Below the pieces are notes generated by a model. The model worked only from the letters and a program-made list of their open reading frames with translations, searched no databases and was not told the origin of the DNA. Of a DNA stretch of 64,000 nucleotides, positions 3,846-38,274 are shown in pieces. Source of the stretch: an uncultured Alphaproteobacteria bacterium (GTDB lineage Bacteria > Bacteroidota > Ignavibacteria > OLB7). Each line of letters begins with the position of its first letter. Position 1 is the first letter of the stretch. The stretch covers positions 323,475 to 387,474 of the forward strand of contig CAYVWR010000003.1 in NCBI GenBank assembly GCA_964455525.1, in the 5' to 3' direction. The translations under genes and the position numbers were made by a program.

Positions 3846-5021
3846 ATGAGCAATGCAGACGATTCAATACCGACGCCGAGGCCTCGCCTCCTCATCATCG
3901 GACCTCTCCCTCCTCCCTATATCGGGCCGGCCGTCGCTACCGAGCGGCTCGTCGCATCCCCGATCATGCATTCCATGTTCGATGTCGATCTGCTGAACAC
4001 CGGCGATCCTGGCGGGGAGGACGACATCGGCCAGCTTAGCCTGCATAACATACGGGAGGCTCTATCGCAGGCCATGCGGTATCTGGGACGCCTTATAAGA
4101 AAACGCCCTGATGTGATCTATGTGTCGATCGCACGCGGCTTCTGGGGCTTTCTCCGCGATGTCTGCTTTCTCCTTCCTGCAAAGCTGTTCGGCGTCCGTT
4201 CGGTGATCCATCTGCGCGCCGGCCGCTTCGATCTTATCCATGATGATGGTCTGCGCGGCCGCCTGCTTGCACGGGTCGGCCTGTGGTGCACAACGTATGC
4301 GGTGGTGCTTGGCGAGACCGTACGGGGCATCTTCGGCGATTTCATCGCGCAGGATCGGGTTGTGGTTGTGCCCAACGGCATCGATCTGGAAGCATGGCCC
4401 AGACCGGGCGATCGCGAGCAGTCCCACGATACAGGGGAGCAGCAGGGGCGCTTTCATCTCGTCTATCTTGCCAACCTGTTCTCCGACAAGGGGGCGCATA
4501 TCCTGTTGCAGGCACTGCCGCAGATTATCGCACGCTGCCCCGATGTGCTTGTATCGTTTGCAGGAGCATGGCTCAACGCGGAGTATCGCGAGCAGTGCCT
4601 GGGGCTGGTACAGACCAATGGATTGGAACACAATGTCCGGTTTGTAGGCGTGGTACGGGGGGAGGCAAAACGCGAGCTGCTCCTTTCGGCCGATGTCAGC
4701 GTTTTTGTGCCGATAAAGCCGGAAGGGCTGCCGTGGGTGGTGCTGGAGGCGATGGCCTGCTGCAAACCGGTGGTGGGAACACCACAGGGGACGATGAAGG
4801 AGGTGATCGTGGATGGGGAGACAGGATACCTTGTGCCGCCGGAGGATGTGGGGGCGCTTACCGAGACGCTGCTTCTGCTGGCTGCCGATCCAGAGCGTCG
4901 GCGGCGCATGGGCGCGTCTGCTAGAGCACGCGTTGAAACCGTGTATGCCGAGACCGAGTGCCATAAAAGGCTGGCCGCAACTGCGATGAGGGCGATTCAG
5001 GGCCCGGGCGCAGGGCGATAA
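3846..5021 (+). CDS. Glycosyltransferase family 4.
   Basis: Motif EGLPWVVLEAMACCKPVVGTPQGTMKEVIVDGETGYLV is a GT1 EX7E-like region. The start is ambiguous (3822 or 3846). Confidence 0.65.
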   Translation: MSNADDSIPTPRPRLLIIGPLPPPYIGPAVATERLVASPIMHSMFDVDLLNTGDPGGEDDIGQLSLHNIREALSQAMRYLGRLIRKRPDVIYVSIARGFWGFLRDVCFLLPAKLFGVRSVIHLRAGRFDLIHDDGLRGRLLARVGLWCTTYAVVLGETVRGIFGDFIAQDRVVVVPNGIDLEAWPRPGDREQSHDTGEQQGRFHLVYLANLFSDKGAHILLQALPQIIARCPDVLVSFAGAWLNAEYREQCLGLVQTNGLEHNVRFVGVVRGEAKRELLLSADVSVFVPIKPEGLPWVVLEAMACCKPVVGTPQGTMKEVIVDGETGYLVPPEDVGALTETLLLLAADPERRRRMGASARARVETVYAETECHKRLAATAMRAIQGPGAGR

Positions 5022-5121
5022 GGGGGGCGTACTCAGGCCGCCGGGACGTGTCGGCTCGTTGGCAGATCTCCCCGGACGGGCTCCTGTGCAGGGGCCTGGC
5101 TCTAACAACCAAGAATGACTT

Positions 5122-7073
<1,952 letters not shown>

Positions 7074-21956: not shown

Positions 21957-22550
21957 ATGAATTTTTCCGAGTACAAGCAGTACTTGCAGCGGGCGCTCGA
22001 TTCGGTGGATGAGCGCGAAGTTGAAAGCTTTATCGAGGTGCTGTACGCTGCCTATCAGCGCGATGCGATGATCTTTGTTATCGGCAATGGCGGCTCGGCT
22101 GCAAATGCCAGCCATCTTGCGCAGGATCTCGCAAAGGGAACCTGCGCCTCGATGCAGCAGGAACGGCGTATCCGCGCACTTTCCCTGACGGATAACTTCG
22201 CCTTCTTCTCCGCGCTTGGCAACGATGAGGGCTATGACCAGGTATTTGTGCAGCAGCTTCGCACATTCTGCCGCCCGGGCGATCTCCTCGTTTCGATCTC
22301 CGGTTCCGGCAACAGCCCGAACGTCCTTCGTGCGGTCGAGTACGCAAACGAACATGGCCTGAAGACGATCGGCGTGACAGGCTTCTCCGGCGGCAGCCTT
22401 GCCGGCATCGTAGAGCATCAGGTGCATGTTCCGCTGAACGATATGTGCACTGCCGAGAGCGTGCATTCCGTCATATTCCACTACGTGATTCTGGAACTTC
22501 AGAAACGCCTGGCGGCCGAACATGCAACAACGGCGGAGGCTGCCTCGTAG
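21957..22550 (+). CDS. gmhA: SIS-domain phosphoheptose isomerase.
   Basis: IGNGGSAANASHLAQDL and ISGSGNSPNV SIS motifs. Length 197 aa. Confidence 0.8.
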   Translation: MNFSEYKQYLQRALDSVDEREVESFIEVLYAAYQRDAMIFVIGNGGSAANASHLAQDLAKGTCASMQQERRIRALSLTDNFAFFSALGNDEGYDQVFVQQLRTFCRPGDLLVSISGSGNSPNVLRAVEYANEHGLKTIGVTGFSGGSLAGIVEHQVHVPLNDMCTAESVHSVIFHYVILELQKRLAAEHATTAEAAS

Positions 22551-22937
22551 CTCGTCGGAACGGGTCAAGCGCGATACAACGCCTTGGCGCGTTGTATCGC
22601 AGACAGCGTAAGCTGGTATGCGGCCGGGGAAACCCGGCCGTTGTTACTTTTGGGGAGCATCCGCGTGCTGGTGCGTCTTATACAGTGCGATAACTATACA
22701 CCTGCCCGAACATGAGATTCGGATAAGAGAGGTGGGATGCCCTGCGTTCGCAAAGAGGACGATGAGCCTGGTGCCGGAACGATATTCGGACTTTGAAAAT
22801 CCAATTCCAAGAGCTATGATGTACATCGGGAGCTTTCTACTTTTTGTGAAAAGATGGAAAGCTCTATGGTTTTATCCCTTTGGGAAATTTCCGATCATGG
22901 CCCTGAATCGAACTATCTATACTACTGAGGACATGCG

Positions 22938-23354
22938 ATGGTTGATCAATCAATCTGTATAACCGACTATGATCTGCGCCGTCTGAGTAAGCTTGTACTT
23001 GATGGACGCTACAGAGGTGGGCAGACAGGTGGTACGCTGCGGAAGCTTTGGACCGAACTTGGCCGGGCCGATGTTGTGCCGTCGAAGAACGTTCCGCCGG
23101 ATGTTATCACGATGAACTCCACCGTCCGTCTGCTCGATGTGGACCGGGGAACCACCAGCACGTTTACTCTGGTCTTTCCTGCGGCGGCAGACATTGCAAC
23201 CGGATGCATTTCCATCCTCTCGCCAATAGGAATGGCGATGCTGGGCTATAGGGTTGGCGATAGTTTTGAATGGGAAGTTCCTTCAGGGATCAGACGATTA
23301 CAGGTGGAATCGATCGTCTATCAGCCAGAGGCAGCGGGAGACTACCACTTGTAG
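22938..23354 (+). CDS. rnk: GreA/GreB C-terminal-domain regulator (regulator of nucleoside diphosphate kinase, Rnk-like).
   Basis: About 138 aa. Pattern DYDLRRL...LLDVDRG...SILSPIGMAMLGYRVGDSFEW is typical of Rnk/GreA C-terminal domain proteins. Confidence 0.65.
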   Translation: MVDQSICITDYDLRRLSKLVLDGRYRGGQTGGTLRKLWTELGRADVVPSKNVPPDVITMNSTVRLLDVDRGTTSTFTLVFPAAADIATGCISILSPIGMAMLGYRVGDSFEWEVPSGIRRLQVESIVYQPEAAGDYHL

Positions 23355-23595
23355 CCCTTCTGCATAATCGTAGTGAGCCTCTGCCGGGTGTTCGCGCGGA
23401 GGCCATCCTCCGCGCGCCGCCTGGCAAAGAGCGGGGGATGAACATCAAGCCGGAATGTGTGTGGTGCAGGATACGATCGGCAGATCGTGCGCCTGGTTCG
23501 GAATCTTCAATATCGCTCACGCCTCTTCTACAACCCCTCTCTTCCACCGTGCAGCCTGGCGGGTTTTCCAGGAACTACGCTCCAGGCCCTATCGC

Positions 23596-24621
23596 TTACC
23601 AACCCTTTCCAGCCTCTCCCGCGATCTTCGTTGCCGTCTGTAATACCTCCTGTACGCTGATCTCCCGCATGCAACGGAAATGCCCTTCCGGGCAACTGCT
23701 TCGCCCGATTGTTGTGCAGGGACGGCAGTACAGCCCCTGCCGCTCCACAATCGCCGAGCGTGTGCCATAGGGGATGAACCCGAATTCCTGTACCGTGCTT
23801 CCGAAGATCGTTACCACCGGACGTTTTCGCGCCGCAGCTACATGGGTTAGCGCCGAATCGTTTGCCACGATCAGATCGCATGTGTCCATGGTCGCCGCCG
23901 TCTCCAGAAGCGTTGTCCGCCCGGCCAGGTTTACGACATCTCCGGCAATTCCCTGTTCTACTGCTGTGCATAGATCCCGTTCCGATGGCGATCCCAGAAG
24001 CACGATCCGTGCGTTGTGTTCACCTGCCAGCATCGTTCCCAATGCGGCGAAATTTTCCGGGAGCCACCGTTTTGTTGCATGTCTTGCTCCAGGAGCCATT
24101 GCTACGGTGGGGCGCCCCTTCAGCGGGACCACTGGTGCATAGGCACCGCCGGTGAACAGGTCCAGCCCTTCGCCGTCGTTCCGCAGGCCATACGGTTCCC
24201 CCACCTGAAGATAGAGTTCCGGGATCGGCACAATAGGCCGAAGCCGGTTGACCTTCCGTTTCACCAGCAGCCACTTCCTGAACGTCGGCTTGTGGATCAC
24301 TGCCACCTCGCGCCCCAGCCCTGTGCGCACATAGCGGCTGCGGAGAGAGTTGTGCAGATCGAAGACGATATCATAATCGCCACTGTTCTCGGCGATCAAT
24401 CCCGATTTCAGCCGGGCCAGATCGCGCAGGCCCCATCCCTTCTCGATGGCGATCGCCCGGTCGAGATAGGGGGAATGCTCTACCAGCGGGAGAAATTCCC
24501 GTTTGCTGAGATAGTGAATCTCCGCCTCTGGAAAACGTTTCCGAAGCGCTCGCACAAAGAGCGAGGTGAGGATGATATCCCCGGCGGAACTGAAACGGAT
24601 GAGTAATATTTTCATGCGCAC
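23596..24621 (-). CDS. Family-9 glycosyltransferase (heptosyltransferase-like).
   Basis: N-terminal MKILLIRFSSAGDIILTSLFVRALRKRFPEAEIHYL matches the GT9 (RfaF/RfaC/RfaQ) N-terminal signature. Length 341 aa. Confidence 0.75.
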   Translation of the reverse strand: MRMKILLIRFSSAGDIILTSLFVRALRKRFPEAEIHYLSKREFLPLVEHSPYLDRAIAIEKGWGLRDLARLKSGLIAENSGDYDIVFDLHNSLRSRYVRTGLGREVAVIHKPTFRKWLLVKRKVNRLRPIVPIPELYLQVGEPYGLRNDGEGLDLFTGGAYAPVVPLKGRPTVAMAPGARHATKRWLPENFAALGTMLAGEHNARIVLLGSPSERDLCTAVEQGIAGDVVNLAGRTTLLETAATMDTCDLIVANDSALTHVAAARKRPVVTIFGSTVQEFGFIPYGTRSAIVERQGLYCRPCTTIGRSSCPEGHFRCMREISVQEVLQTATKIAGEAGKGW

Positions 24622-25153
24622 ACCGTAAACGTGGAATCTACACAGGTTTTAAGCATCCCAGATTGTGTCTGACAATTTGAATCGTCTAGCGACGAGATAC
24701 CTGTTGGGAACAGGTGTGCAATGCCGCCGAAACGGTGCCAATCGCTCTTCAGTGTACGGAAGAAGCTCCCACTGAGAGCAGTATCCCAGCAGGTGCTCCA
24801 ACGGTTTATGCTCCGGGTAACGGCATTGGCTGAACAGAACTCAGCAATGCCAATGGCCGTATACTGGGGCGATCGGGGGGCGTGACTGGCCGCGTGTGCT
24901 GCGAGTCGGTTGTGCGTACCCGTTGGCACAGTGTTCTTGTGCACGCGGAAAGCCAGCAACCATGACCTGCATCGACGTTCTGCTGGATGGTCTCGGCAAA
25001 TACCGCAGCGTTAGATGTACGATATGAAAAAAAGTTAACGTCGGGTTGCAAATGCATTGCATTGGCTCATCGCTCAGGGTATGTTCCCTCTGCGTGTACA
25101 ACCGCCAATGATCTCGCTGCTCATCCAGTATCGTTCTAAAGAAAGGTGCATGT

Positions 25154-27277
25154 ATGCTGCTGATAAGATTGCACGTTCGTGCAGGTGTATCGCTCCAGGT
25201 TCTGCTGCTGCTGCTTGCGGTGGCTTCTGCACTGCATGCAGGGGAGCATGATGGCAGGGATCGCTACGCTCTGGTGCTGCCGGATAGCACGGAGGTGGAC
25301 GCACCTGTGCAGACCAGCGAGTCACCGTTCAAACGTGGTCGATCGGGCCTGCGTGTGTATGTCTATGGAGACGATGGGCAACTGGTCTCGGATGCCGATG
25401 TCCAGGTCTTCTCGCTGATTGATGCGACGGTTCTTGCGGTCCCGTTCGACACACTGCATCGAGCGTATTCTCTGCGAGTGACCTGGGTGAAGGACTTCGA
25501 GTATGAAGAAGTGGATAGGGGAATCGCACCGCACCGCTACAAGAAGCTACGGATCAGCAAAGCAGGATATCAGCCTCAGGAGTATTACCTGAACGAGTGT
25601 TGTGATGCCGGTCTGGGCCGGGTCGATATCTATCTGGCACGACCAGGGGAACGCCTGTATTACGATGGGTGCCATGGCATACCGTTCACTCCGCATCGCG
25701 ACCTTGCCTATGTGGAGTTTATCTGGAGCGATGCGGGTCATCGGAGGCAGAACCAGAAGGTGTTGAAGGAACTAGGGTTGCAGGTGGTGCGGAACTACCC
25801 AGGTGTTGCGATCAAGGAGACTTCACCGAAGCAGAGAGGTCGGCGAAGCCGTGTTGGCAGCAATGGTGTGGTTGTGCGGAAGTCGGGTGGGGGTGTGTTT
25901 GATGCGGTGGGTGATACGGTTCTGGGCGCGTTGCGCGGTGATACTCTGGTGCGTACCGCAGGGATGGTGCGTGGCATGAGCGGTGATCGTGTTGATGCTT
26001 ACGACAACCGCTTGGTGCTGGTCTTTGGTACTCTTGAGGATGCGTTGCTGGAGAACGACTACGAGACGGTGACGAACCTTTTGTGGGGTATGGGTGCCAG
26101 CGATATAGTTGTACAGTTTGGTGATCGTCTTATCGCGGAGTTCGATGCAGGGATGGGAGAAGGCATCCTGGACATCGCCGATAGCCTTCGGCGAACGCGT
26201 TTGTTCGATGCGTTGCAGAACACGGATGTCGGCACGTTCTCTCACTTCTACCAACGGAGGATCTCAAGGCAGCCGAAGCCGTCCTCGCCCGGCGGGAAGC
26301 GCACGCGGGAGGCCAGCCGATCGGCCTCGCAGTTGCGTTCGTCCGGCACGATCGTCTCTGGCAGTGGTGAGGTGCTGCTGCCGGTGCGTGTGGTTGGTGA
26401 TTCCGGTGAGGTGGTCAACAATGTGATCGTGAGTGCATACCGGCACCTGGAATCAATACCGAGGACATCGTTGGCGGTTGGTTATGACTCATCGCGTTCG
26501 TTGTATCTGATTCCGTACAAGCCTACGAAGATGTCGTGGCTTGTGGCGTGGGCACCGGGTCGTGTACGTCAGGTTCGTCCCCTTTCGAGTTCTGTTCTCT
26601 CGGAAGTGATCGATGGGGTGCTGACCCTGCGGCTGTATAGCGTGCGCCTGGAATATTATTGGCTGGGGAGCTGGAAAGTTCTCTACGAGAGCCGTCCGGA
26701 CTGGATGAGCCTGAGATACAAGCCGGGCCGGTTGGCAGCGGTTGAACGGTTGGTGCAGAGTCTGGATCTGCGTGTCGTGGGAGATCTGGAGCTGGAAGAA
26801 TTGATAAGAGGCCCTATTGTATGGCCATGGGGACCTAATCCATTTCGTTATCGTGAAAACAACCTGGCACGGCTGCGTGAGGCAGAGATACTGATGGTTG
26901 CCAAACGCAACGGTGAGTTGTTCGATCGGTACGACAGTCGGGAGCTGGAAGGATTGCGTGGTGATACAAATGTCATCTTTGCGGGACCGACATCTGCATC
27001 GACGCATGTGTATGTTCATATGCATGATAACGATATTCGCCTACGCTTGTCTGAGAGGATGACATCACGGGATCTAGGCTACCTGGTCGCACCATATGGG
27101 TTGAGTCTTGAGTCGGGAGTGACGGAGGATGCCAAGGATCGTTACAGAGTGAGTCTTCCATTGGGGATGGGTGAAGGAGCCAGGGAGCTGATCGATCGGC
27201 TGATTCTAGTAAAAGGCATTGCAATCCCCAGCAGTGATAATTATCAATTTGAAAGTTGGCTTAAAGGGGAGGATTGA
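25154..27277 (+). CDS. Secreted 707-aa protein of unknown function, copy 1.
   Basis: Signal peptide MLLIRLHVRAGVSLQVLLLLLAVASALHA. Segments LRVYVYGDDGQLVSDADVQVFS and LLPVRVVGDSGEVVNNVIVSAY look like transthyretin/CarboxypepD_reg-like beta-sandwich modules. Confidence 0.6.
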   Translation: MLLIRLHVRAGVSLQVLLLLLAVASALHAGEHDGRDRYALVLPDSTEVDAPVQTSESPFKRGRSGLRVYVYGDDGQLVSDADVQVFSLIDATVLAVPFDTLHRAYSLRVTWVKDFEYEEVDRGIAPHRYKKLRISKAGYQPQEYYLNECCDAGLGRVDIYLARPGERLYYDGCHGIPFTPHRDLAYVEFIWSDAGHRRQNQKVLKELGLQVVRNYPGVAIKETSPKQRGRRSRVGSNGVVVRKSGGGVFDAVGDTVLGALRGDTLVRTAGMVRGMSGDRVDAYDNRLVLVFGTLEDALLENDYETVTNLLWGMGASDIVVQFGDRLIAEFDAGMGEGILDIADSLRRTRLFDALQNTDVGTFSHFYQRRISRQPKPSSPGGKRTREASRSASQLRSSGTIVSGSGEVLLPVRVVGDSGEVVNNVIVSAYRHLESIPRTSLAVGYDSSRSLYLIPYKPTKMSWLVAWAPGRVRQVRPLSSSVLSEVIDGVLTLRLYSVRLEYYWLGSWKVLYESRPDWMSLRYKPGRLAAVERLVQSLDLRVVGDLELEELIRGPIVWPWGPNPFRYRENNLARLREAEILMVAKRNGELFDRYDSRELEGLRGDTNVIFAGPTSASTHVYVHMHDNDIRLRLSERMTSRDLGYLVAPYGLSLESGVTEDAKDRYRVSLPLGMGEGARELIDRLILVKGIAIPSSDNYQFESWLKGED

Positions 27278-27438
27278 TCCCCAACGTGCCGATTCGTGCT
27301 TTGTGAAGATATCCCGTGGAAACGATGCGGGATGATATGTCTGGGCTGTGATTGTCCCAGCAAACTCTTGTTGCCCTCTGTCCTCTCGTGATAGTGCAGG
27401 GGAGCCAGTATATCAAGTACACCACAACAACAATTTCT

Positions 27439-27891
27439 ATGAAACGAAGCCAAGTGCGATCGCTGTTTATTCGTGTCTGTGATCCGATGGGAATGCTGAT
27501 AGGTGATGCCACTGTGTCGGTGCGGAGCAGTGATGGGGTTGTGGAGCGTGTTGCCTCGGGTGTGGATAGGATAGGGCATGGTGTGAAGAAGGAGTATAAT
27601 CATTATATCAAAGATATTGAGCCAGGAACATATATCCTGGAGATCAGCCGACCAGGGTCGATACTGGAGCGCTTGGTAGTTGATATGCCGGATACTGGTC
27701 GGTATCTGGAATGTATGCTCCACGCAAAGGATAGTGAGTATGGGTATCGGGCAGGCCGGAGCGCTGGATATTGCACGGGAGCACTGGAAGTAGCCGTGAT
27801 GCATGCTGGCAGAGTTGAAGATTGTGATCTGCGTGGTACTCGGGAAGTCGCTGAGAGTTTTGGGCTGCACCTGTCCGGGATATTTGAATAG
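27439..27891 (+). pseudogene. Truncated duplicate of the 5' end (~150 codons) of the giant S8 gene, created by the tandem duplication. It ends GIFE* where the intact gene continues GIFKNADG.
   Basis: Identical to 30310-30762 apart from junction bases. The reading frame runs into the repeat junction and stops at 27891. Confidence 0.6.
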
Positions 27892-30762
27892 GATATGAAA
27901 AAAAGTTAACGTCGAGTTGCAAATGCATTGCATTGGCTCATCGCTCAGGGTATGTTCCCTCTGCGTGTACAACCGCCAATGATCTCGCTGCTCATCCAGT
28001 ATCGTTCTAAAGAAAGGTGCATGTATGCTGCTGATAAGATTGCACGTTCGTGCAGGTGTATCGCTCCAGGTTCTGCTGCTGCTGCTTGCGGTGGCTTCTG
28101 CACTGCATGCAGGGGAGCATGATGGCAGGGATCGCTACGCTCTGGTGCTGCCGGATAGCACGGAGGTGGACGCACCTGTGCAGACCAGCGAGTCACCGTT
28201 CAAACGTGGTCGATCGGGCCTGCGTGTGTATGTCTATGGAGACGATGGGCAACTGGTCTCGGATGCCGATGTCCAGGTCTTCTCGCTGATTGATGCGACG
28301 GTTCTTGCGGTCCCGTTCGACACACTGCATCGAGCGTATTCTCTGCGAGTGACCTGGGTGAAGGACTTCGAGTATGAAGAAGTGGATAGGGGAATCGCAC
28401 CGCACCGCTACAAGAAGCTACGGATCAGCAAAGCAGGATATCAGCCTCAGGAGTATTACCTGAACGAGTGTTGTGATGCCGGTCTGGGCCGGGTCGATAT
28501 CTATCTGGCACGACCAGGGGAACGCCTGTATTACGATGGGTGCCATGGCATACCGTTCACTCCGCATCGCGACCTTGCCTATGTGGAGTTTATCTGGAGC
28601 GATGCGGGTCATCGGAGGCAGAACCAGAAGGTGTTGAAGGAACTAGGGTTGCAGGTGGTGCGGAACTACCCAGGTGTTGCGATCAAGGAGACTTCACCGA
28701 AGCAGAGAGGTCGGCGAAGCCGTGTTGGCAGCAATGGTGTGGTTGTGCGGAAGTCGGGTGGGGGTGTGTTTGATGCGGTGGGTGATACGGTTCTGGGCGC
28801 GTTGCGCGGTGATACTCTGGTGCGTACCGCAGGGATGGTGCGTGGCATGAGCGGTGATCGTGTTGATGCTTACGACAACCGCTTGGTGCTGGTCTTTGGT
28901 ACTCTTGAGGATGCGTTGCTGGAGAACGACTACGAGACGGTGACGAACCTTTTGTGGGGTATGGGTGCCAGCGATATAGTTGTACAGTTTGGTGATCGTC
29001 TTATCGCGGAGTTCGATGCAGGGATGGGAGAAGGCATCCTGGACATCGCCGATAGCCTTCGGCGAACGCGTTTGTTCGATGCGTTGCAGAACACGGATGT
29101 CGGCACGTTCTCTCACTTCTACCAACGGAGGATCTCAAGGCAGCCGAAGCCGTCCTCGCCCGGCGGGAAGCGCACGCGGGAGGCCAGCCGATCGGCCTCG
29201 CAGTTGCGTTCGTCCGGCACGATCGTCTCTGGCAGTGGTGAGGTGCTGCTGCCGGTGCGTGTGGTTGGTGATTCCGGTGAGGTGGTCAACAATGTGATCG
29301 TGAGTGCATACCGGCACCTGGAATCAATACCGAGGACATCGTTGGCGGTTGGTTATGACTCATCGCGTTCGTTGTATCTGATTCCGTACAAGCCTACGAA
29401 GATGTCGTGGCTTGTGGCGTGGGCACCGGGTCGTGTACGTCAGGTTCGTCCCCTTTCGAGTTCTGTTCTCTCGGAAGTGATCGATGGGGTGCTGACCCTG
29501 CGGCTGTATAGCGTGCGCCTGGAATATTATTGGCTGGGGAGCTGGAAAGTTCTCTACGAGAGCCGTCCGGACTGGATGAGCCTGAGATACAAGCCGGGCC
29601 GGTTGGCAGCGGTTGAACGGTTGGTGCAGAGTCTGGATCTGCGTGTCGTGGGAGATCTGGAGCTGGAAGAATTGATAAGAGGCCCTATTGTATGGCCATG
29701 GGGACCTAATCCATTTCGTTATCGTGAAAACAACCTGGCACGGCTGCGTGAGGCAGAGATACTGATGGTTGCCAAACGCAACGGTGAGTTGTTCGATCGG
29801 TACGACAGTCGGGAGCTGGAAGGATTGCGTGGTGATACAAATGTCATCTTTGCGGGACCGACATCTGCATCGACGCATGTGTATGTTCATATGCATGATA
29901 ACGATATTCGCCTACGCTTGTCTGAGAGGATGACATCACGGGATCTAGGCTACCTGGTCGCACCATATGGGTTGAGTCTTGAGTCGGGAGTGACGGAGGA
30001 TGCCAAGGATCGTTACAGAGTGAGTCTTCCATTGGGGATGGGTGAAGGAGCCAGGGAGCTGATCGATCGGCTGATTCTAGTAAAAGGCATTGCAATCCCC
30101 AGCAGTGATAATTATCAATTTGAAAGTTGGCTTAAAGGGGAGGATTGATCCCCAACGTGCCGATTCGTGCTTTGTGAAGATATCCCGTGGAAACGATGCG
30201 GGATGATATGTCTGGGCTGTGATTGTCCCAGCAAACTCTTGTTGCCCTCTGTCCTCTCGTGATAGTGCAGGGGAGCCAGTATATCAAGTACACCACAACA
30301 ACAATTTCTATGAAACGAAGCCAAGTGCGATCGCTGTTTATTCGTGTCTGTGATCCGATGGGAATGCTGATAGGTGATGCCACTGTGTCGGTGCGGAGCA
30401 GTGATGGGGTTGTGGAGCGTGTTGCCTCGGGTGTGGATAGGATAGGGCATGGTGTGAAGAAGGAGTATAATCATTATATCAAAGATATTGAGCCAGGAAC
30501 ATATATCCTGGAGATCAGCCGACCAGGGTCGATACTGGAGCGCTTGGTAGTTGATATGCCGGATACTGGTCGGTATCTGGAATGTATGCTCCACGCAAAG
30601 GATAGTGAGTATGGGTATCGGGCAGGCCGGAGCGCTGGATATTGCACGGGAGCACTGGAAGTAGCCGTGATGCATGCTGGCAGAGTTGAAGATTGTGATC
30701 TGCGTGGTACTCGGGAAGTCGCTGAGAGTTTTGGGCTGCATCTGTCCGGGATATTCAAAAAT
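27892..30762 (+). repeat. Tandem direct repeat, copy 2 (2,871 bp). This is the ancestral copy and continues into the intact giant gene.
   Basis: Near-identical to 25021-27891. One substitution was noticed: G at 25045 versus A at 27916. Identity decays only in the last ~10 bp at the junction. Confidence 0.9.
28025..30148 (+). CDS. Secreted 707-aa protein of unknown function, copy 2 (identical to copy 1).
   Basis: Identical translation to 25154-27277. Confidence 0.6.
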   Translation: MLLIRLHVRAGVSLQVLLLLLAVASALHAGEHDGRDRYALVLPDSTEVDAPVQTSESPFKRGRSGLRVYVYGDDGQLVSDADVQVFSLIDATVLAVPFDTLHRAYSLRVTWVKDFEYEEVDRGIAPHRYKKLRISKAGYQPQEYYLNECCDAGLGRVDIYLARPGERLYYDGCHGIPFTPHRDLAYVEFIWSDAGHRRQNQKVLKELGLQVVRNYPGVAIKETSPKQRGRRSRVGSNGVVVRKSGGGVFDAVGDTVLGALRGDTLVRTAGMVRGMSGDRVDAYDNRLVLVFGTLEDALLENDYETVTNLLWGMGASDIVVQFGDRLIAEFDAGMGEGILDIADSLRRTRLFDALQNTDVGTFSHFYQRRISRQPKPSSPGGKRTREASRSASQLRSSGTIVSGSGEVLLPVRVVGDSGEVVNNVIVSAYRHLESIPRTSLAVGYDSSRSLYLIPYKPTKMSWLVAWAPGRVRQVRPLSSSVLSEVIDGVLTLRLYSVRLEYYWLGSWKVLYESRPDWMSLRYKPGRLAAVERLVQSLDLRVVGDLELEELIRGPIVWPWGPNPFRYRENNLARLREAEILMVAKRNGELFDRYDSRELEGLRGDTNVIFAGPTSASTHVYVHMHDNDIRLRLSERMTSRDLGYLVAPYGLSLESGVTEDAKDRYRVSLPLGMGEGARELIDRLILVKGIAIPSSDNYQFESWLKGED

Positions 30763-33700
30763 GCTGATGGGGTAACACAGGTGTTTTCGCCTGGTGCCGA
30801 TGGCTGCAATGAGAATGAGAGGGATATCCTGAAGAAGTGTAGTGATGCACTTCACACTGCGGGGATCTATAGCCACATAGGTATCGTTCTTGAGAGGAAT
30901 GAAGGGGCCATACATGTAGCAACGGGCATCATTCTTGCCAAATGCCTGCCTGGGATCGATGTTCAGTATGTACGAGATACGATCGAACGTGCCAGCCTGG
31001 AAATAGTGTATGAACATTCACCTGTAAGCCGCCTCTTTGAGATTGCGGTCAACGATGTTGCTGGAAAGAACATAGTGGATTCATGCAGAACATTGATGGA
31101 ATCCGGAGTGTTTGAATCCGCTGATCCCATGGCAACCGTAACCGCTGAACTGTTAAGCGGGAGTCAGGTGATCCCCAGTGATTTTCTCTTTCCTCTTCAG
31201 TGGCATCTCGCAACAGCAAATGTGCCGGAAGCATGGGCCATCCTACAAAGTCATGGTAGACCATCCACCGAGGTGAACGATCTGACGTATGGAAGCGCCG
31301 ATGTGGTTATCGCTATTGTCGATACCGGCGTTGATTCATCGAAGTATGAAGATGAACCTGATGGAGAAGGCGCTCCCAACCATACGGACTTTATAGGGAA
31401 TGTGCGCGGCGGTCTGCTTGCCCCTCTTATCGGATCGAAAAAAGTTTACAAGATCTATGATATGCGGACATTCAAACGTACGGATAACCATGGCAATCGC
31501 GATCCGAATATTCGTGGTGGGATGTACCCTGATAATTACAAGGTAACCTTGTCGCATGGGGTTTCATGTGCAGCCATTGCCACTGCCATGGCAAATGGCA
31601 GGGGAAGCGTGGGTGTTGCACCCAATGCGCGCCTCATTAGCATTCGTACCGCTCAGCAAGGGACGAATCTGAATCAAATTAACAGGAATACATGGTCATG
31701 GCTTGTGGGGCTGGACCCAGGATGGACCACCAATGGACCTGTGTATGATCCGTATGATATTCTTCCGGCGCAGTTTGGCACGCCCGGTAATCCAGGGCCG
31801 GGCGCGGATATCATCTCTAATAGTATGAGATTTAAGTACTTGGCGGAGAACTTTGATGCCGATATGCGAAACATTAGCGATGTGTGCTGGTACGGGCGGC
31901 AGCGAAGAGGTGCTATCTTCGTATTAGGGGCGGGCAATGATGATAGTAGCATTATGGATAGGCAGATGTTCGGATATCATCGTCGCATCATTGTTGTTGC
32001 AGCTTCTACTCTGGATTCCAAAGGGGTGGAGATCCGTGCTCCATATAGCAGCTATGGTGACAATTCCAGAGAGGTATATCCGCCTAAGGATAATTCTGGA
32101 AATAATGAAGGCTCTGAAGTCGAAAAGAAAAAAGAGATCCCTGACAGAAAACCCGACTGGCTCTATGTAGATGTTTCTGCTCCATCTGCTAACTATCCGG
32201 AATGCGACAATAATCCTCTGTATGCTGAGCTTACAATAAATGAAGATGGATCTGTTGGGCCTCCGGATGATACCTATAAGGTTTTTGGCCCTCGGCCCCA
32301 TATGGTCAATCGCCCACCATACAACCGTGCGATTGTCACAGCCGGTATGTTCGAGGATACGCGGGACTTTCTGCTTGGAGGCACTCTCTATCCACCAACG
32401 GATGAGAGTGCCAGAGTAAGCCAGCTCACACGCAGTAATCTGCCCGGAGATCATATCCGGGAAACCACACTGTGGGAGGCTGTGGATGCCCCTGTATCGA
32501 ACGCTACCCGTGTAAAGGTTGTCAAGGTGGCAAATGTGCCAGGGATTACCTATGCTCCCCACGATGCGGTCGTGATAGGAAAGGTCGGTTATAATGAAAA
32601 TGGAGTCGATGAAACCGCCATCAATGAGGTTGAGTCCTCCGTTGTGGTCGGTGTCACCGAATACCCCGATTATACGGAACTGGAACTGGATGGTTATCTG
32701 TGGAATGCACACGCTGCGGGCGCACCGGTATATACGGGGAAACGGAGCTATGTGGATCATTTCAGCGGGACATCGATGTCCACGCCCCTGGTTGCCGGCA
32801 CGGCTGCCCTTATACTCTCGGCAAATCCATACCTCACCAACATCGAGGTTCGCGAGATATTGCGATCGACGGCTGTAAAGATCGATATGCATGGAGGTAT
32901 GTGGCTTAGTACTCAGTTCAGAAGCCAGAGAGATAAAACAATCTTATCTCGTGATCGGGTTGCTCCTGCAATAGGTGTGCAGCCTCCTATCTTCAAGCCT
33001 ATCACGTCATCGTTAGGCATTGCAATCGACGCTGTCGCCGATAGTGGAAAATTCTCCAGGATCACTATTGCGGAAAATCAAAGCCGTGCGGGTTTCAGTG
33101 TTGGCCAGGCCGTTCTGATAGGCGCAGAGACATTGCTTGTTCGGGCCGCGACATTGCCGCCGAACCCGATCCAGCCTGTGACGATCACGGTCGAGAGTAC
33201 CGACGGATTCCACCCTGGCCAGATTATCCGGATTGGTGATGCGGATACCACATATTTTGCCGGGTTTCCAGTGAGACGGAATGATGGCAGTGACGATAGC
33301 ATGGATCAGAGTACGGAGGAGCCGGAGGCACGTGGCAGGATTATCGGGCTTGACCGTAAGAAGATCCTTGTAGGAAATACCAGAACCTATCAGGCAGGCC
33401 AGGCTATCCTGATAGGTGGGGTACGGTATGTTATAGAATTTGTCCAGGGAACATTCAAGTTGCTGCTGACAACGGAGTATGCGGGCGAAAACCACTGGCC
33501 CCATGTTCCCCGTATGGAGGTGGTCCCGGCCGATGTGCTTGAGGGCACCGTCGAAGAAATCGTGAGCGATACGCAGATGACCGTGATCTATACGGGGCCG
33601 GGGAAAAGCTTCACCACGACTCCCAAGCCTCTTGTCCGTGTTAAGGGAACCGAGTCCTCGGTGATTATGGATCTTCCCGGCGACGATGCCAGGGCGGTTA

Positions 33701-36700
33701 TCGTGCAGCGCCTCGGGAATGTGCATACTGAGGCTGACAAGAAGATGGTGCTCGGCGGCAGGACGCCATACTATAGCCGCCACCTGGGGTTTGGCAGGGT
33801 GGATGCCGCCGCCGCCGTGAGCGCTGCATTCAGTTATAGCCACAACGACAGGGATCTGATGGTACGTAAGTATATGGGGGATAATGGCACTACACGGCCC
33901 GATATGGCATATGAGGCTCTGAAGCTCAGCCCTGATATCTGGCTGAGCAACAGTGGTGATTCCGTTCTGCCCGCCGACGATGCCTATGGAACGCCTGCGC
34001 CCCACCAGACCTTTGCGTCCAATCAGCCCAGATGGATCTATGTACGGGTGAAAAATCGTGGCACGAAGCCAAGCCTGGAAGCATCGGTGCGATTTTATGT
34101 GGCAGTCAGGGACCGTGCGGAGATTCTGAAGTTCACGATGGATGATTTCCAGCAATCAAGGATCGATGGGGTGCCGTTTACGGTGTCAAGTGGCAATATC
34201 GGCACTCAGTATGTGGAAGAAGCATACCTCTTCCCCTTTGATGCTACCGATATGAGCGGTATACCCCATAACAGGACAATGGTGGTACGGACAAATAAAT
34301 GGGAGCTTGCCAATCTGCCGCTCGATGCCGTATTGTCGGGGCGCAAACGGATTTTTGTGCTTGCCGAGATCACCCCCCATGATGGGCGCGTCAAAGGGGC
34401 TGACAATAACTATATCGACACCATCTACAACAAGGAGAACTTTCTCGATATCCGTAATGATAACAACGTCGCGTTTCGTGAGGTGATCTTTGCCGATGTT
34501 CAGGTCAAGGGGCAGCCCGATGGCGAGCCTCTGCAAAAGCAGTACCCGGCGCCGAGATCCGGCAGGAAAAAATCTCAACTGTTCAGGATTGATCTGCTCG
34601 ACCGGGTTGGGGCATTTGTTGCTGAAAATGTCGTCGTGGAGGTGACCGGAGTTTGTGCGGGCCTATCTTCGGCGGTGGAGTTTTATCATACATCCGGCAC
34701 CGGCTGGCGAACCAGCGATCCTGGAGCCGACTGGATCTCCTTTGATGGTCCGCCCATGACGACGCACCCCGCCACCACCACCCCATCCAATCCTGTCAGC
34801 ATACCCGAAGCCGCGGTGGGGGACCTGTACGAAATGTTCTTTACCGGCACGTTTGCCGTTGATACTACATGGCAGTCCATCTCCATCATCGCTGTGATTC
34901 ATGATGACGAAGGAAGGGAGCTTGGGCGTAGCGGATGGGCCGCACAGATCGTGGAGGAGCCTGTCAGGTATGATGTTCTCGCTGATGCCGCCGTTGCCCG
35001 CCCTGCTCTCTCCGCCTTTGCAGATATGAGCCTACTGGACGAGCAGATAAGTGAATCGATGGCCTACGGCCCGCAGTCGTCCCTGGTGTTTCGTAGTACC
35101 AATAGCTTCACCTCGCAGGCCGATAGTGTGCCGGCCTATGCCGCCGCCGATGGTGTTGCGATGATACAGCGGATGGTCGATCCGGAGACCGGGCTGGTCG
35201 ATGAGCAGCGTGTGAACCTGATTATTGCGCCGCGTGGCGGGTCTGGCGTTGCTATTCAGCCTGTCCAGTATTTTGTCTATCGTGGTCTCAGGATCGGCGA
35301 TTTCCTGGGAGGGCCTGCAACCGGGAACGGCGGGGTCGATTATATCCAGGTGCGCTCCGGTCCAGCCGATGAGAACGACACCAGCGTCTCGGCTTTTATC
35401 AGGGAGATCTACAGAGGCATGGAGATGCGCCGTCAGGAGATGGTCGCCGCCGGAATTCCTTCGGGTGATATCCCGGATATCGAAAACGATCCGTTGTCGA
35501 GCAGCATTCTGGGATGGGAGGCGAGCGCCAGCCTGGAAAGCACGAACGATCTCCCCCTGGATGATTTTTTCAATCGATTCGATGAACTGCGCCAGCTTCC
35601 GCTGGTGCGCAGGGGAATGCATCTCGGCGATTTTCATGCCGGGGAGGAGGCAGAGTTCGGCATCGATATCGCGCTGCAAGGGGACTATGCGGTCCCGCTG
35701 ACGTTTGCGTATGCGCGCAGAGCCTACCATGAGATCAATCTGCTGGAGGATGAGCCTGCCTCGGAGTGGGAGGAACGGCGGCGGCGCGAGGATGCGCGCA
35801 ATTTTATCGATGCGGCGGCCTACTATGGCATGCACGGCTCGATCGGCGTCTACGATCATCAGGGGAGGTTGCGGCGGGGGGAGGAACTCTACAACGATCT
35901 GCTCCTTCCCTTCCTCAACAGAAACCGGGTCTATATCGATATCCGGAACGAGGCAGGATACTCGATGAACTATTCCGGCAATTATATGATGGATGGGGCA
36001 CAGGTGAAGGTGGGATCGGACCTTGCCTTGATGTACGCTGATATCTATGCCACCGATGGCTGGCCGATCGGCATGATAGAGCGCTCGCATAGCGAGATTC
36101 TCTCGGGAGAAGATGGCATCTTCTATCTCTCGCTCGCTGTTGCGGATAATACGCTTCCGCTCCTGTATGTAGAGCAGGGTATAGTGCAGGGCCAGCTCCA
36201 CCAGGGCTTTGTGCCGGGGAGTTGGCTGCTGGCCCAGGGGACGGAATGGACCTTCCCGGTCGGATTTCGGCTTCCGCAGGTAGAAGAAGGCGGGCAGATG
36301 CGCGATCTGGCCGGTATGATCCGGCTCCGCTATCTGCGCCAGATTCCTGCGGTGCCGGGGCTTGCAGTGGGGAACGTAGTGGCGGCGGAGCACTATACCG
36401 ATAATATCTTCGGTCCGGTGGATGCCGGTGTTGCCTGGGATGCCGCTCCGGGAAATTCGCCGATGAATCATCTGCAACAGACCCGATGGGACCGGCTTCA
36501 CGAAAGGCGATATGCGGATGGTCGGCAGACCGGCCATGGTATCTCCTTTGGCGCGCTTATGGAACGTGGCATCGCGGTGCGGAGCGGGCAGGTGCTCTTC
36601 TACAACGTCGCCGTCGATTTCTACAGCATAAGCGGAGGGGTGGTGCCAAAGGGGAGAGGGGCGGGAGTGGGCTTCGGCCCGCAGCAGAATTTCCTGGAGG

Positions 36701-38274
36701 CATCCTCGATCTTCAATGGTTATAATGTGGAGACGAGCGAGATAGCCCAGCCTGTGGCCGCGACGCTGTATAGGCTGGTTCCACAGGACGATAACGTTGT
36801 GCGCGAAGGGGTGATGATGCTTGGTATTACCGCCAGTGAACGGGCGCTGCTCGCCGATGCTGCCGCTGTTGTGCTGAGCCGCTATCACGAGCGGAATCTG
36901 GTGCTTGAAGAACGCCAGATCGTGGGCGCCGAGGCCTCCGTCTACAGTCTGAAGGTCCGTGGCCTCCACAAGGACACCCATCAGAGCTATGATGCGGAGC
37001 CGACCTCGGAGATTCATGTTTACTCCAGAGATGGTCTCTTTTTTGTCTCGGCGGAATTCACCATGCCGGATTTCCTTCCCGACATCTATCTGCCAAACGC
37101 GGAGGAACTGCGTGCGGCCACGCCGGAGCCGACAGCGATCCTGGAGAACCATCCGGTGATGGCGATGTTGATCGCTGGCTTTGAACATGCGTTGTCGTCG
37201 ATTCCTGATAACGATATGGCCAGGGAATCGCTGAAAGCGGCGATCGATATTTACGGAGAAGATCTCTGGGCCGAGGCGACCGCGTTTACTCTCGATGGAG
37301 GTGCTGACGACCGGATACTCTACTGGGCCAGGCTGAGGATGGCTGCGGTGTTGAAAGGGCATCCCCGTCTGCTGAAGAACTCGCAGGAGCAGGCCGAGGT
37401 GGTGCGCTATTTCGAGGAGACGACCCGCGGGTTCGCTCAGGCCACATTTGCCAATGCCACCACAGGGGCCATGAAGATTCTGCTGGTCGGCTTCGATCCC
37501 TACGCGCTTGGCGGTGCTGGCGTAACCAACAGCAATTCCGGGGGGATGGTGGCTCTCGGAATGCACGGCAAGAGCATAACAGAGGGAGATGCCACAGGGC
37601 ATATCAACAGCGTTATCCTCCCGATTCGCTATCGCGATTTCGATGATGGGATGGTAGAGCGCCTGTTTAGCCCCTTCCTGTATGGAAATACCACGGTGGA
37701 TATGATCGTGGCCGTGAATATGAATGGAGGCCACGGCATGTTCAGTCTGGCGCGATTTGCCGCACGCGCCAGAACCGGAGGATTCCCGGATAATGCCGAT
37801 CGGAAATCGGTCGGGGCAATTGGAGCAGGAACCGGCTGGAATGAATTCTACCAGACGAGCCTGCCAGTGCAGGAGATGATGCAGGGGGAGATCGGGCGTA
37901 CGCCGCAACAGATATTCTTTTATGACCAGTCGTACCGGTTGATCGATCCCACTGGCGTCCCGCTAGAGCATGGGCGTGCGGGAATCGATGCAGGGGCGAT
38001 CAACAGCGATCTGAACGAATCGCTGCCGCTTGGGGGAACCGCTGTGGCGGGGTCGGCCGGAAGCTATCTGCCGAACGAGTTTTTCTACCGGCTTGCGCGG
38101 TTGCGTGCGCAGCCTCCGGGAACGGAGCCTTCGCCGAATGTACGCCTGGGATATCTCGGCATTCCAAGCGTAAACGTCTCGGCGGTTACCGGTGGAGTGC
38201 TCTCCCGAAGCCAGATCATGAACGAGCTGGAAGAGGCATTGAAACGGGCGCTGGCCGGGCTGGGCGAAGGTTAG
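30310..38274 (+). CDS. Giant protein (~2,655 aa) carrying a peptidase S8 (subtilase) catalytic domain split by large insertions, followed by ~1,500 aa of unknown sequence.
   Basis: Catalytic Asp in VIAIVDTGVDSS, His in SHGVSCAAIATAMANG, Asn in VLGAGNDD and Ser in GTSMSTPLVAGTAALILSANPYL. CARDB-like segment NQPRWIYVRVKNRGTKPSLEASVRFYV. Start taken at the internal ATG (MKRSQVRS). Confidence 0.7.
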   Translation: MKRSQVRSLFIRVCDPMGMLIGDATVSVRSSDGVVERVASGVDRIGHGVKKEYNHYIKDIEPGTYILEISRPGSILERLVVDMPDTGRYLECMLHAKDSEYGYRAGRSAGYCTGALEVAVMHAGRVEDCDLRGTREVAESFGLHLSGIFKNADGVTQVFSPGADGCNENERDILKKCSDALHTAGIYSHIGIVLERNEGAIHVATGIILAKCLPGIDVQYVRDTIERASLEIVYEHSPVSRLFEIAVNDVAGKNIVDSCRTLMESGVFESADPMATVTAELLSGSQVIPSDFLFPLQWHLATANVPEAWAILQSHGRPSTEVNDLTYGSADVVIAIVDTGVDSSKYEDEPDGEGAPNHTDFIGNVRGGLLAPLIGSKKVYKIYDMRTFKRTDNHGNRDPNIRGGMYPDNYKVTLSHGVSCAAIATAMANGRGSVGVAPNARLISIRTAQQGTNLNQINRNTWSWLVGLDPGWTTNGPVYDPYDILPAQFGTPGNPGPGADIISNSMRFKYLAENFDADMRNISDVCWYGRQRRGAIFVLGAGNDDSSIMDRQMFGYHRRIIVVAASTLDSKGVEIRAPYSSYGDNSREVYPPKDNSGNNEGSEVEKKKEIPDRKPDWLYVDVSAPSANYPECDNNPLYAELTINEDGSVGPPDDTYKVFGPRPHMVNRPPYNRAIVTAGMFEDTRDFLLGGTLYPPTDESARVSQLTRSNLPGDHIRETTLWEAVDAPVSNATRVKVVKVANVPGITYAPHDAVVIGKVGYNENGVDETAINEVESSVVVGVTEYPDYTELELDGYLWNAHAAGAPVYTGKRSYVDHFSGTSMSTPLVAGTAALILSANPYLTNIEVREILRSTAVKIDMHGGMWLSTQFRSQRDKTILSRDRVAPAIGVQPPIFKPITSSLGIAIDAVADSGKFSRITIAENQSRAGFSVGQAVLIGAETLLVRAATLPPNPIQPVTITVESTDGFHPGQIIRIGDADTTYFAGFPVRRNDGSDDSMDQSTEEPEARGRIIGLDRKKILVGNTRTYQAGQAILIGGVRYVIEFVQGTFKLLLTTEYAGENHWPHVPRMEVVPADVLEGTVEEIVSDTQMTVIYTGPGKSFTTTPKPLVRVKGTESSVIMDLPGDDARAVIVQRLGNVHTEADKKMVLGGRTPYYSRHLGFGRVDAAAAVSAAFSYSHNDRDLMVRKYMGDNGTTRPDMAYEALKLSPDIWLSNSGDSVLPADDAYGTPAPHQTFASNQPRWIYVRVKNRGTKPSLEASVRFYVAVRDRAEILKFTMDDFQQSRIDGVPFTVSSGNIGTQYVEEAYLFPFDATDMSGIPHNRTMVVRTNKWELANLPLDAVLSGRKRIFVLAEITPHDGRVKGADNNYIDTIYNKENFLDIRNDNNVAFREVIFADVQVKGQPDGEPLQKQYPAPRSGRKKSQLFRIDLLDRVGAFVAENVVVEVTGVCAGLSSAVEFYHTSGTGWRTSDPGADWISFDGPPMTTHPATTTPSNPVSIPEAAVGDLYEMFFTGTFAVDTTWQSISIIAVIHDDEGRELGRSGWAAQIVEEPVRYDVLADAAVARPALSAFADMSLLDEQISESMAYGPQSSLVFRSTNSFTSQADSVPAYAAADGVAMIQRMVDPETGLVDEQRVNLIIAPRGGSGVAIQPVQYFVYRGLRIGDFLGGPATGNGGVDYIQVRSGPADENDTSVSAFIREIYRGMEMRRQEMVAAGIPSGDIPDIENDPLSSSILGWEASASLESTNDLPLDDFFNRFDELRQLPLVRRGMHLGDFHAGEEAEFGIDIALQGDYAVPLTFAYARRAYHEINLLEDEPASEWEERRRREDARNFIDAAAYYGMHGSIGVYDHQGRLRRGEELYNDLLLPFLNRNRVYIDIRNEAGYSMNYSGNYMMDGAQVKVGSDLALMYADIYATDGWPIGMIERSHSEILSGEDGIFYLSLAVADNTLPLLYVEQGIVQGQLHQGFVPGSWLLAQGTEWTFPVGFRLPQVEEGGQMRDLAGMIRLRYLRQIPAVPGLAVGNVVAAEHYTDNIFGPVDAGVAWDAAPGNSPMNHLQQTRWDRLHERRYADGRQTGHGISFGALMERGIAVRSGQVLFYNVAVDFYSISGGVVPKGRGAGVGFGPQQNFLEASSIFNGYNVETSEIAQPVAATLYRLVPQDDNVVREGVMMLGITASERALLADAAAVVLSRYHERNLVLEERQIVGAEASVYSLKVRGLHKDTHQSYDAEPTSEIHVYSRDGLFFVSAEFTMPDFLPDIYLPNAEELRAATPEPTAILENHPVMAMLIAGFEHALSSIPDNDMARESLKAAIDIYGEDLWAEATAFTLDGGADDRILYWARLRMAAVLKGHPRLLKNSQEQAEVVRYFEETTRGFAQATFANATTGAMKILLVGFDPYALGGAGVTNSNSGGMVALGMHGKSITEGDATGHINSVILPIRYRDFDDGMVERLFSPFLYGNTTVDMIVAVNMNGGHGMFSLARFAARARTGGFPDNADRKSVGAIGAGTGWNEFYQTSLPVQEMMQGEIGRTPQQIFFYDQSYRLIDPTGVPLEHGRAGIDAGAINSDLNESLPLGGTAVAGSAGSYLPNEFFYRLARLRAQPPGTEPSPNVRLGYLGIPSVNVSAVTGGVLSRSQIMNELEEALKRALAGLGEG

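Follow-up and report, generated by a model that had tools for sequence, protein, structure and literature searches.

How does a bacterial chromosome come to hold two nearly identical copies of a 2.87-kb segment side by side, and is the arrangement real? This question is raised by a stretch of 64,000 nucleotides (nt) from an uncultured bacterium (contig CAYVWR010000003.1 of GenBank assembly GCA_964455525.1, positions 323,475 to 387,474 of the forward strand; hereafter termed the window). Here, a gene for a predicted secreted protein of 707 amino acids (aa), together with the 5′ end of the giant open reading frame (ORF) that follows it, occurs twice, head to tail. Probably, a chromosomal segment of 2.87 kb was genuinely and recently duplicated in tandem, by a non-homologous route and through a template-switch junction, at a locus that has grown recurrently.

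The repeat was mapped by comparing the window with itself, base by base, at an offset of 2871 nt and by repeat searches of the 22-34 kb region and of the whole 64-kb window. A near-perfect 2,871-bp tandem duplication had been described in a first-pass annotation of this DNA, and that description was borne out: two head-to-tail copies with a period of 2871 differ at 2 of their 2864 nt, which puts a chance origin far out of range. No other long repeat, direct or inverted, was detected in the window by the repeat searches. The unit, its products and its boundaries are listed in Table 1. As the same annotation had stated, the gene for the signal-peptide protein is doubled, the two 707-aa ORFs being identical in DNA and preceded by the same 133-nt upstream region, and a 5′ fragment of the giant gene has been left behind. 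The first 149 codons of the giant gene, counted from ATG 30310, are repeated from ATG 27439, and the fragment ends in GIFE at a TAG located within the sequence that joins the two copies. The products of the event are therefore two identical 707-aa genes, one free-standing 150-codon fragment of the N-terminus of the giant protein and an intact giant gene.

Table 1. Coordinates (in the window) of the duplicated unit, its genes and its junction
Feature	Position	Strand	Description
Copy 1 of unit	25021..27884	+	2864 nt: 133 nt 5′ of 707-aa gene, the gene, 161-nt spacer, first 149 codons of giant gene
Copy 2 of unit	27892..30755	+	continues in frame into remainder of giant gene
707-aa gene, copy 1	25154..27277	+	predicted secreted protein, two tandem ~310-aa modules (beta-sandwich plus alpha/beta)
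707-aa gene, copy 2	28025..30148	+	DNA identical to copy 1
Truncated 5′ copy of giant gene	27439..27891	+	150 aa from ATG, ends ...LSGIFE and stop; 179 aa from TTG 27352
Intact giant gene	30310..38274	+	2654 aa from ATG 30310; right breakpoint after codon 149
Junction filler TGAATAG	27885..27891	+	7 nt between copies; supplies TAG stop of truncated ORF
Right breakpoint region GGGATATTCAAAAATG	30748..30762	+	putative template for inverted filler; last 14 nt (30749-30762) are an 11/14 imperfect match to unit start 25021-25034
Copy-specific substitution 1	25044 G vs 27915 A	+	24 nt inside left edge of unit
Copy-specific substitution 2	27870 C vs 30741 T	+	15 nt inside right edge of unit; synonymous His, CAC vs CAT

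The distribution of the differences between the copies is informative. A single substitution had been reported at the outset, G at 25045 versus A at 27916; the change itself is real, but it lies one base to the left of the positions given, and the C/T difference near the opposite edge had been missed. Both substitutions fall within 24 nt of a unit edge. Given that two uniformly placed differences would do so with P = 2.8e-4, they appear to be tied to the junction or to the edges. Seen from the junction, all substitutions around it are confined to the 46-nt stretch 27870-27915. Three explanations of this confinement can be ranked, without deciding between them: errors of synthesis at the junction come first, collapse of the interior by the assembler second and gene conversion third.

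The junction is not that of a simple crossover. The right parental site reads ...CTGTCCGGGATATT/CAAAAATGCTG and the left ...GATGTAC/GATATGAAAAAAAGTT (a slash denotes the breakpoint), and the actual junction is ...CTGTCCGGGATATT-TGAATAG-GATATGAAAAAAAGTT. The duplication junction is marked by the sequence GGGATATTTGAATAGGATATGAAAAAAAG, and the junction sequence TTTGAATAG is present once in the window and nowhere else. The motif GATAT is found at both parental sites, and a crossover within it would be expected to yield GGGATATGAAAAAAAG; the actual junction is 13 nt longer than this product and retains both copies of GATAT. An early figure of about 10 bases for the difference at the junction should accordingly be revised to 7 nt for the filler, or to 13 nt relative to a clean GATAT crossover. 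The filler resembles sequence at the right breakpoint. Read as a reverse complement, its TGAATA matches TATTCA at 30752-30757; one further base extends the match to TTGAATA (27884-27890) against TATTCAA (30752-30758), a stretch that spans that breakpoint, and each of these 7-mers occurs only twice in 64 kb. The GGATAT that follows the inverted piece corresponds to 30749-30754.

Three routes to the duplication were considered and rejected. Simple slippage between GATAT..AAAAA microhomologies, suggested by the first-pass annotation from what looked like a clean microhomology pattern, is insufficient to explain the product, since both GATAT copies and 7-8 extra nt were kept. Moreover, when random pairs of sites with this spacing were drawn from the window and given the same search space, 6.3% of them had a match as good as the 11/14 one between GATATGAAAAAAAG and GATATTCAAAAATG, and the 14-nt similarity between the breakpoint sequences is thus suggestive at best. 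An origin in homologous recombination was ruled out, the flanks and the unit ends sharing no exact match longer than 8-10 nt as against the flanking repeat of at least 35 bp at no less than 92% identity that serves as the criterion for bacterial duplications made by recombination (bioRxiv 10.64898/2026.05.22.727201). Duplications of the R-D-R-D-R type, which arise between insertion sequence (IS), rRNA or repetitive extragenic palindromic (REP) repeats, have the direct tandem product in common with the present case, whereas the unit in the window has no flanking repeat. Finally, an IS or transposon origin was discarded: neither the unit nor the DNA next to it contains a transposase or IS, and no inverted repeats were found in the window. 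The only coding sequences of the unit, those for the 707-aa protein and the 179-aa truncated ORF, have no Pfam match and hence none to a transposase.

The anatomy of the junction can be explained by the following minimal model, in which a RecA-independent template switch of the replication type joins 30755, 149 codons into the giant gene, back to 25021. Synthesis would proceed to 30755 and, after ...GGGATATT, six nt (TGAATA) would be copied from the opposite strand at the breakpoint. GGATAT would then be re-copied briefly before a switch into 25021 at the left site via the GATAT microhomology. Such a series would leave no untemplated base at the junction, and it would place G at 27891 where the native left flank has C (25020). 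On the simplest view, the two point differences, 15 and 24 nt away from the junction, would be errors of the same low-fidelity synthesis. Serial template-switch junctions of the fork stalling and template switching/microhomology-mediated break-induced replication (FoSTeS/MMBIR) type carry templated insertions and point mutations near their breakpoints and have been described mainly in eukaryotes. The likeness lies in an inverted filler taken from breakpoint-adjacent sequence, the re-use of microhomology and substitutions within tens of nt; the difference is that the case in the window is inferred from one junction. In bacteria, RecA-independent duplication and amplification via microhomology and template switching is exemplified by lac amplification in Escherichia coli (Slack et al. 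2006, PMC1428787). Both systems comprise head-to-tail copies of a few kb with one novel junction and short but no long homology, and the proposed origin of the lac events is likewise a nascent strand that switches template in replication. By contrast, the lac junctions are mostly simple microhomologies (PMC1428787), whereas the junction in the window has a 13-nt complex insert, an inverted piece of 6-7 nt and two substitutions nearby. Unlike lac amplification, the event in the window is known from a metagenome-derived genome and without a known selection.

To establish whether the duplication has support in reads, use was made of Logan assemblies, which are built with k = 31, keep each 31-mer once per accession, break contigs at branches and have a reporting limit of 150 bp (PMC12424806). 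Contigs of the left flank were retrieved through exact look-ups of two left-flank genes. Those from SRR16797981 (6081 nt), SRR16797999 (5439 nt) and SRR16797988 (1828 nt) were 100% identical to the window and all terminated at 25074, which is the position of the substitution at 25044 plus 30 (k-1). In SRR16798008, the left-flank contig was also 100% identical to the window, and a contig of 2828 nt aligned to 25045-27869 and equally to 27916-30740. This contig is bounded by the base after the first copy-specific single-nucleotide polymorphism (SNP) and the base before the second. Given that flank contigs end k-1 past a SNP and that the repeat contig is SNP-bounded, the raw reads fork at both edges of the repeat; had there been a single copy, the flank contigs would have continued unbroken. 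A second left context for 25045 onward is present in at least four read sets, and the right-hand fork is also seen in one.

These observations make it unlikely that the duplication was invented by the assembler. An assembly artefact, which had been left as an option when the repeat was first noticed, is largely excluded by the combination of a novel junction sequence, edge SNPs linked to their sequence contexts and k = 31 breaks at SNPs in four runs. Other look-ups, all by exact protein, were negative. The exact 707-aa protein of the window is absent from all Logan runs, and no record was returned for the 150-aa fragment, for the first two giant proteins (2654 and 2888 aa) or for two C-terminal fragments of the 707-aa gene predicted from internal forks; no contig across the junction or the right boundary was obtained as a result.

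Several points weigh against the interpretation of a young and genuine duplication made by template switching. The Logan runs are probably the same data as the assembly, so that an invention specific to one assembler is excluded and heterogeneity of the population is not. The junction itself was not seen in a Logan contig, the expected length of ∼106 nt being under the reporting limit, and the copy number may be exactly two or more, or may vary in a mixed population. The perfect identity of the interior could stem from collapse by the assembler instead of youth, and an intact 707-aa gene was obtained from one Logan run only. In that run, SRR16798008, alignment of the unit contig with the unit of the window gave 27 differing positions, of which 24 fall inside 25259-25603. 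The template-switch account of the filler is also post hoc, as an inverted match of 6-7 nt near a breakpoint would be met by chance in ∼2-10% of cases.

The SRR16798008 variant is of interest in its own right. Its differences are almost confined to a 345-nt stretch, 25259-25603 in copy 1 and 28130-28474 in copy 2 (contig positions 215-560), and outside this patch the unit and its flanks are 99.9-100% identical between SRR16798008 and the window. The patch includes a recoded stretch of 31 nt, FEY-EEVDRGIAPH becoming FEYPSEFETGEASH; the recoded loop, at aa ∼115-127 of the 707-aa protein, has three indels. This loop was modeled with low confidence and falls where homologues have indels. A search of the window for a donor cassette that could have supplied the variant patch was negative. 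Strain variation in a hypervariable surface loop may account for the patch, as may recombination or a genuine difference between the copies that the assemblies have hidden.

The last of these possibilities belongs to a rival account in which the duplication is real but not clean: the copies would differ inside, for instance at 25259-25603, one collapsed repeat edge would have been walked twice by the assembler, and the genes might be older, diverging paralogues. No surviving difference is more than 24 nt from an edge, and at this distance a de Bruijn assembler is still able to assign each one to its unique flank. The 27 differences of the SRR16798008 unit are concentrated in the first third of the 707-aa gene even though the flank from the same run is 100% identical, and both the missing exact 707-aa protein and the single complete gene are consistent with bubbles inside the unit. 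On the other hand, the SRR16798008 unit is one unbroken contig of 2828 nt, and the C-terminal fragments that internal forks predict were not found. Outside the patch this unit differs at only 3 sites in 2266 nt, so that an ordinary strain variant explains the data equally well, and an assembly from HiFi or other long reads would keep the copies apart. We regard collapse as unlikely, if well worth bearing in mind. A related proposal is that the duplication is older and that its interior has been homogenized by gene conversion, the outermost ∼25 nt being too near the boundary of homology and free to diverge. The edge-confined differences fit this proposal, and if the SRR16798008 strain shares the duplication and the edge SNPs while having another interior allele, the duplication would predate the split of the strains, with the copies homogenized within each. 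That strain may, however, have a single copy, and gene conversion demands full homogenization of 2825 nt without residual tract boundaries, whereas mutagenic synthesis at the junction yields the same pattern in one event. This proposal is accordingly judged improbable.

Two further rivals concern the number of copies. Bacterial tandem duplications are typically unstable and carried by part of the population, and the dominant genome might have one copy, with the junction derived from a subpopulation, an excised circle or chimeric reads. The tandem and single-copy alleles would differ only in junction k-mers, and the topology of the graph alone gives no proportion. Chimeric reads are nevertheless disfavored, since four separate runs fork at an identical base, and the junction path needed coverage enough to outlast error removal in two different assemblers. 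The alleles linked to the junction (27870 C and 27915 A) also differ from those linked to the flanks, which implies that the junction molecule is a replicated lineage of its own rather than a product of library preparation; an artefact or minority structure is the most doubtful of the readings considered here. The opposite case, a higher-order amplification to three or more copies under selection for dosage that the assembly displays as two, gains from the fact that later copies share one junction, so that a loop in the graph hides the number of times it is traversed. A first duplication is commonly followed by amplification as its copies recombine (Slack et al. 2006, PMC1428787). No selective agent is known, and higher-order amplification is held to be about as improbable as gene conversion. 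The favored explanation remains a single non-homologous duplication in the chromosome, and this duplication is probably recent.

What was duplicated bears on how the locus evolves. The N-terminus of the 707-aa protein resembles a signal peptide, and no Pfam domain is present; the protein consists of an ancient internal tandem duplication of a module of ∼310-340 aa, the halves being 22% identical (E 1e-5). The N-terminal half of each module is a candidate for the CarboxypepD_reg/transthyretin-like type of beta-sandwich. Its sole relative at 90% clustering is a 708-aa protein encoded on the 2828-nt SRR16798008 contig. An exhaustive HMMER search of 1.84 billion representatives returned only the query itself and two proteins of ∼340 aa with 28-29% identity, and scans of genome and metagenome contigs with the 707-aa protein revealed no relatives and no single-copy sister strain. 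Judged by such searches, the protein is nearly an orphan. Upstream of each copy, ∼90-110 nt 5′ of the start codon, stands the motif TTGCAAATGCATTGCATTGG (25046-25065 and 27917-27936), which holds the 8-nt palindrome AATGCATT and starts two bases past the G/A copy-specific substitution. From its sequence and position this motif could be an operator or promoter element. Searches for sigma-70-type promoters on the + (coding) strand, for a Bacteroidetes-type TAnnTTTG motif in the + strand upstream regions and for intrinsic terminators on either strand were all negative, and no RNA element in the interval 22000-32000 had an Rfam match.

The same module is found within the giant protein itself. In the intact giant gene (giant 1), a Peptidase_S8 match lies at aa ∼330-585, counted from ATG 30310, and a Peptidase_C15-like region lies near the C-terminus. 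Membership in S8 is predicted from a match above the Pfam threshold (PF00082, 102.5 bits against a cut-off of 21.8), and among PADLOC models only a weak subtilase match was obtained, on giant 1. When the first 800 aa of giant 1 were used to query 5.8 billion proteins through a word index, no match came back, not even the giant itself. The set does contain the 707-aa protein encoded next to it on the same NCBI contig; in the source record, giant 1 may lack an annotation or carry a pseudogene label. The region ahead of the protease domain was matched by the module profile (hmmsearch E 1.7e-7; hhalign probability 86%, aa 189-280). Of this N-terminal module of the giant, the truncated ORF keeps the whole beta-sandwich and a portion of the alpha/beta subdomain.

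Comparable arrangements were found in other lineages. At the locus of the first remote homologue, in Logan SRR218216xx, three consecutive module genes encoding 350, 345 and 319 aa lie directly 5′ of a giant of 2550 aa (S8/PA0049_N/C15), which is 34% identical to the window giant over 1579 aa (E 0) and is followed by another giant; the module profile matches the N-terminus of the 2550-aa giant at 3e-18. The second remote homologue lies in the NCBI metagenome-assembled genome (MAG) GCA_039917695.1, at a locus where two module genes are accompanied by an IS3-type transposase and by an S8 giant, at least 2069 aa long, with 28% identity to the window giant (E 6e-86). In JGI contig Ga0206101_1000006, the profile matches the N-termini of two giants and free-standing ORFs as well. 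Given that the profile matches the N-termini of giants, the free-standing module genes are paralogues of the pre-protease region of the giants. These arrays and the window have in common the module family, its position and orientation 5′ of S8/C15 giants, and its presence in the giant N-terminus. The arrays hold 2-3 divergent tandem copies, and the number of free-standing modules varies between lineages (2, 3, and 2 × 2 in the window). The copies in the other arrays are old, with ∼20-30% identity, whereas those in the window are identical and the junction and truncated by-product are still visible. Taken together, the three arrays and the window look like a conserved, uncharacterized system.

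The IS3-family transposase of the GCA_039917695.1 locus (4191-5326; rve, HTH_21) lies between the module genes and the S8 giant, and its insertion is a second type of rearrangement at the same position.

On a wider view, the event in the window would be the newest round of a recurrent process in which the giant gene is partly duplicated at its 5′ end, yielding free-standing module genes. A breakpoint within the N-terminal module of the giant, together with a freed fragment of 150 codons, is the kind of event that could give rise to module genes. More tentatively, partial tandem duplications at this end may be the source of secreted modules whose number (2, 3 or 4 per locus) and sequence (the hypervariable loop at aa ∼115-127) are under dosage or diversifying selection, possibly as propeptide-like partners or inhibitors; we offer this as a conjecture that is unlikely to hold in full. 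A Pfam scan of the modules at relaxed thresholds gave no Inhibitor_I9 match, and the propeptide-like idea is therefore based on position and a ferredoxin-like appearance only.

The duplicated unit has distinctive surroundings. Giant 1 is the first of three consecutive giant ORFs (30310-58864) of 2654 aa (S8 and C15-like), 2888 aa and 3284 aa; the two larger proteins have no match to Pfam, PADLOC or another family, and the third ORF is followed by a 539-aa AAA+ ATPase (AAA_5/MoxR-like). Directly 5′ of the unit is a large polysaccharide biosynthesis cluster (90-24621), with almost all genes on the + strand. It includes GT4 glycosyltransferases, an AsnB-type amidotransferase, a priming phosphoglycosyl transferase and a heptosyltransferase, and a heptose pathway is represented by a GmhA-like SIS protein, a GHMP kinase and a nucleotidyltransferase. 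Proteins of Kapaibacterium MAGs share 78-79% identity with a flanking FAA-hydrolase, the neighbor of which is syntenic at 55-75%. By these protein similarities, the lineage of the window is assigned to Bacteroidota, near Candidatus Kapaibacterium.

As a structural variant the duplication itself is routine, and the bacterial mechanisms are well studied. The junction is unusually informative: it provides a well-preserved, complex, non-homologous example from an uncultivated lineage, and thus a natural case outside model organisms. It also carries two warnings for annotation, namely that a single recent event produced both the second 707-aa gene and the 150-aa ORF, and that the identity and the number of copies in the deposited assembly are provisional. 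The locus has expanded in like manner before. More unusual than the duplication is the conserved giant-gene cluster in which it took place, an essentially unstudied assemblage of module genes, an S8/C15 giant, further giants of 2,900-3,300 aa and an AAA+ ATPase, whose front end grows repeatedly through duplication.

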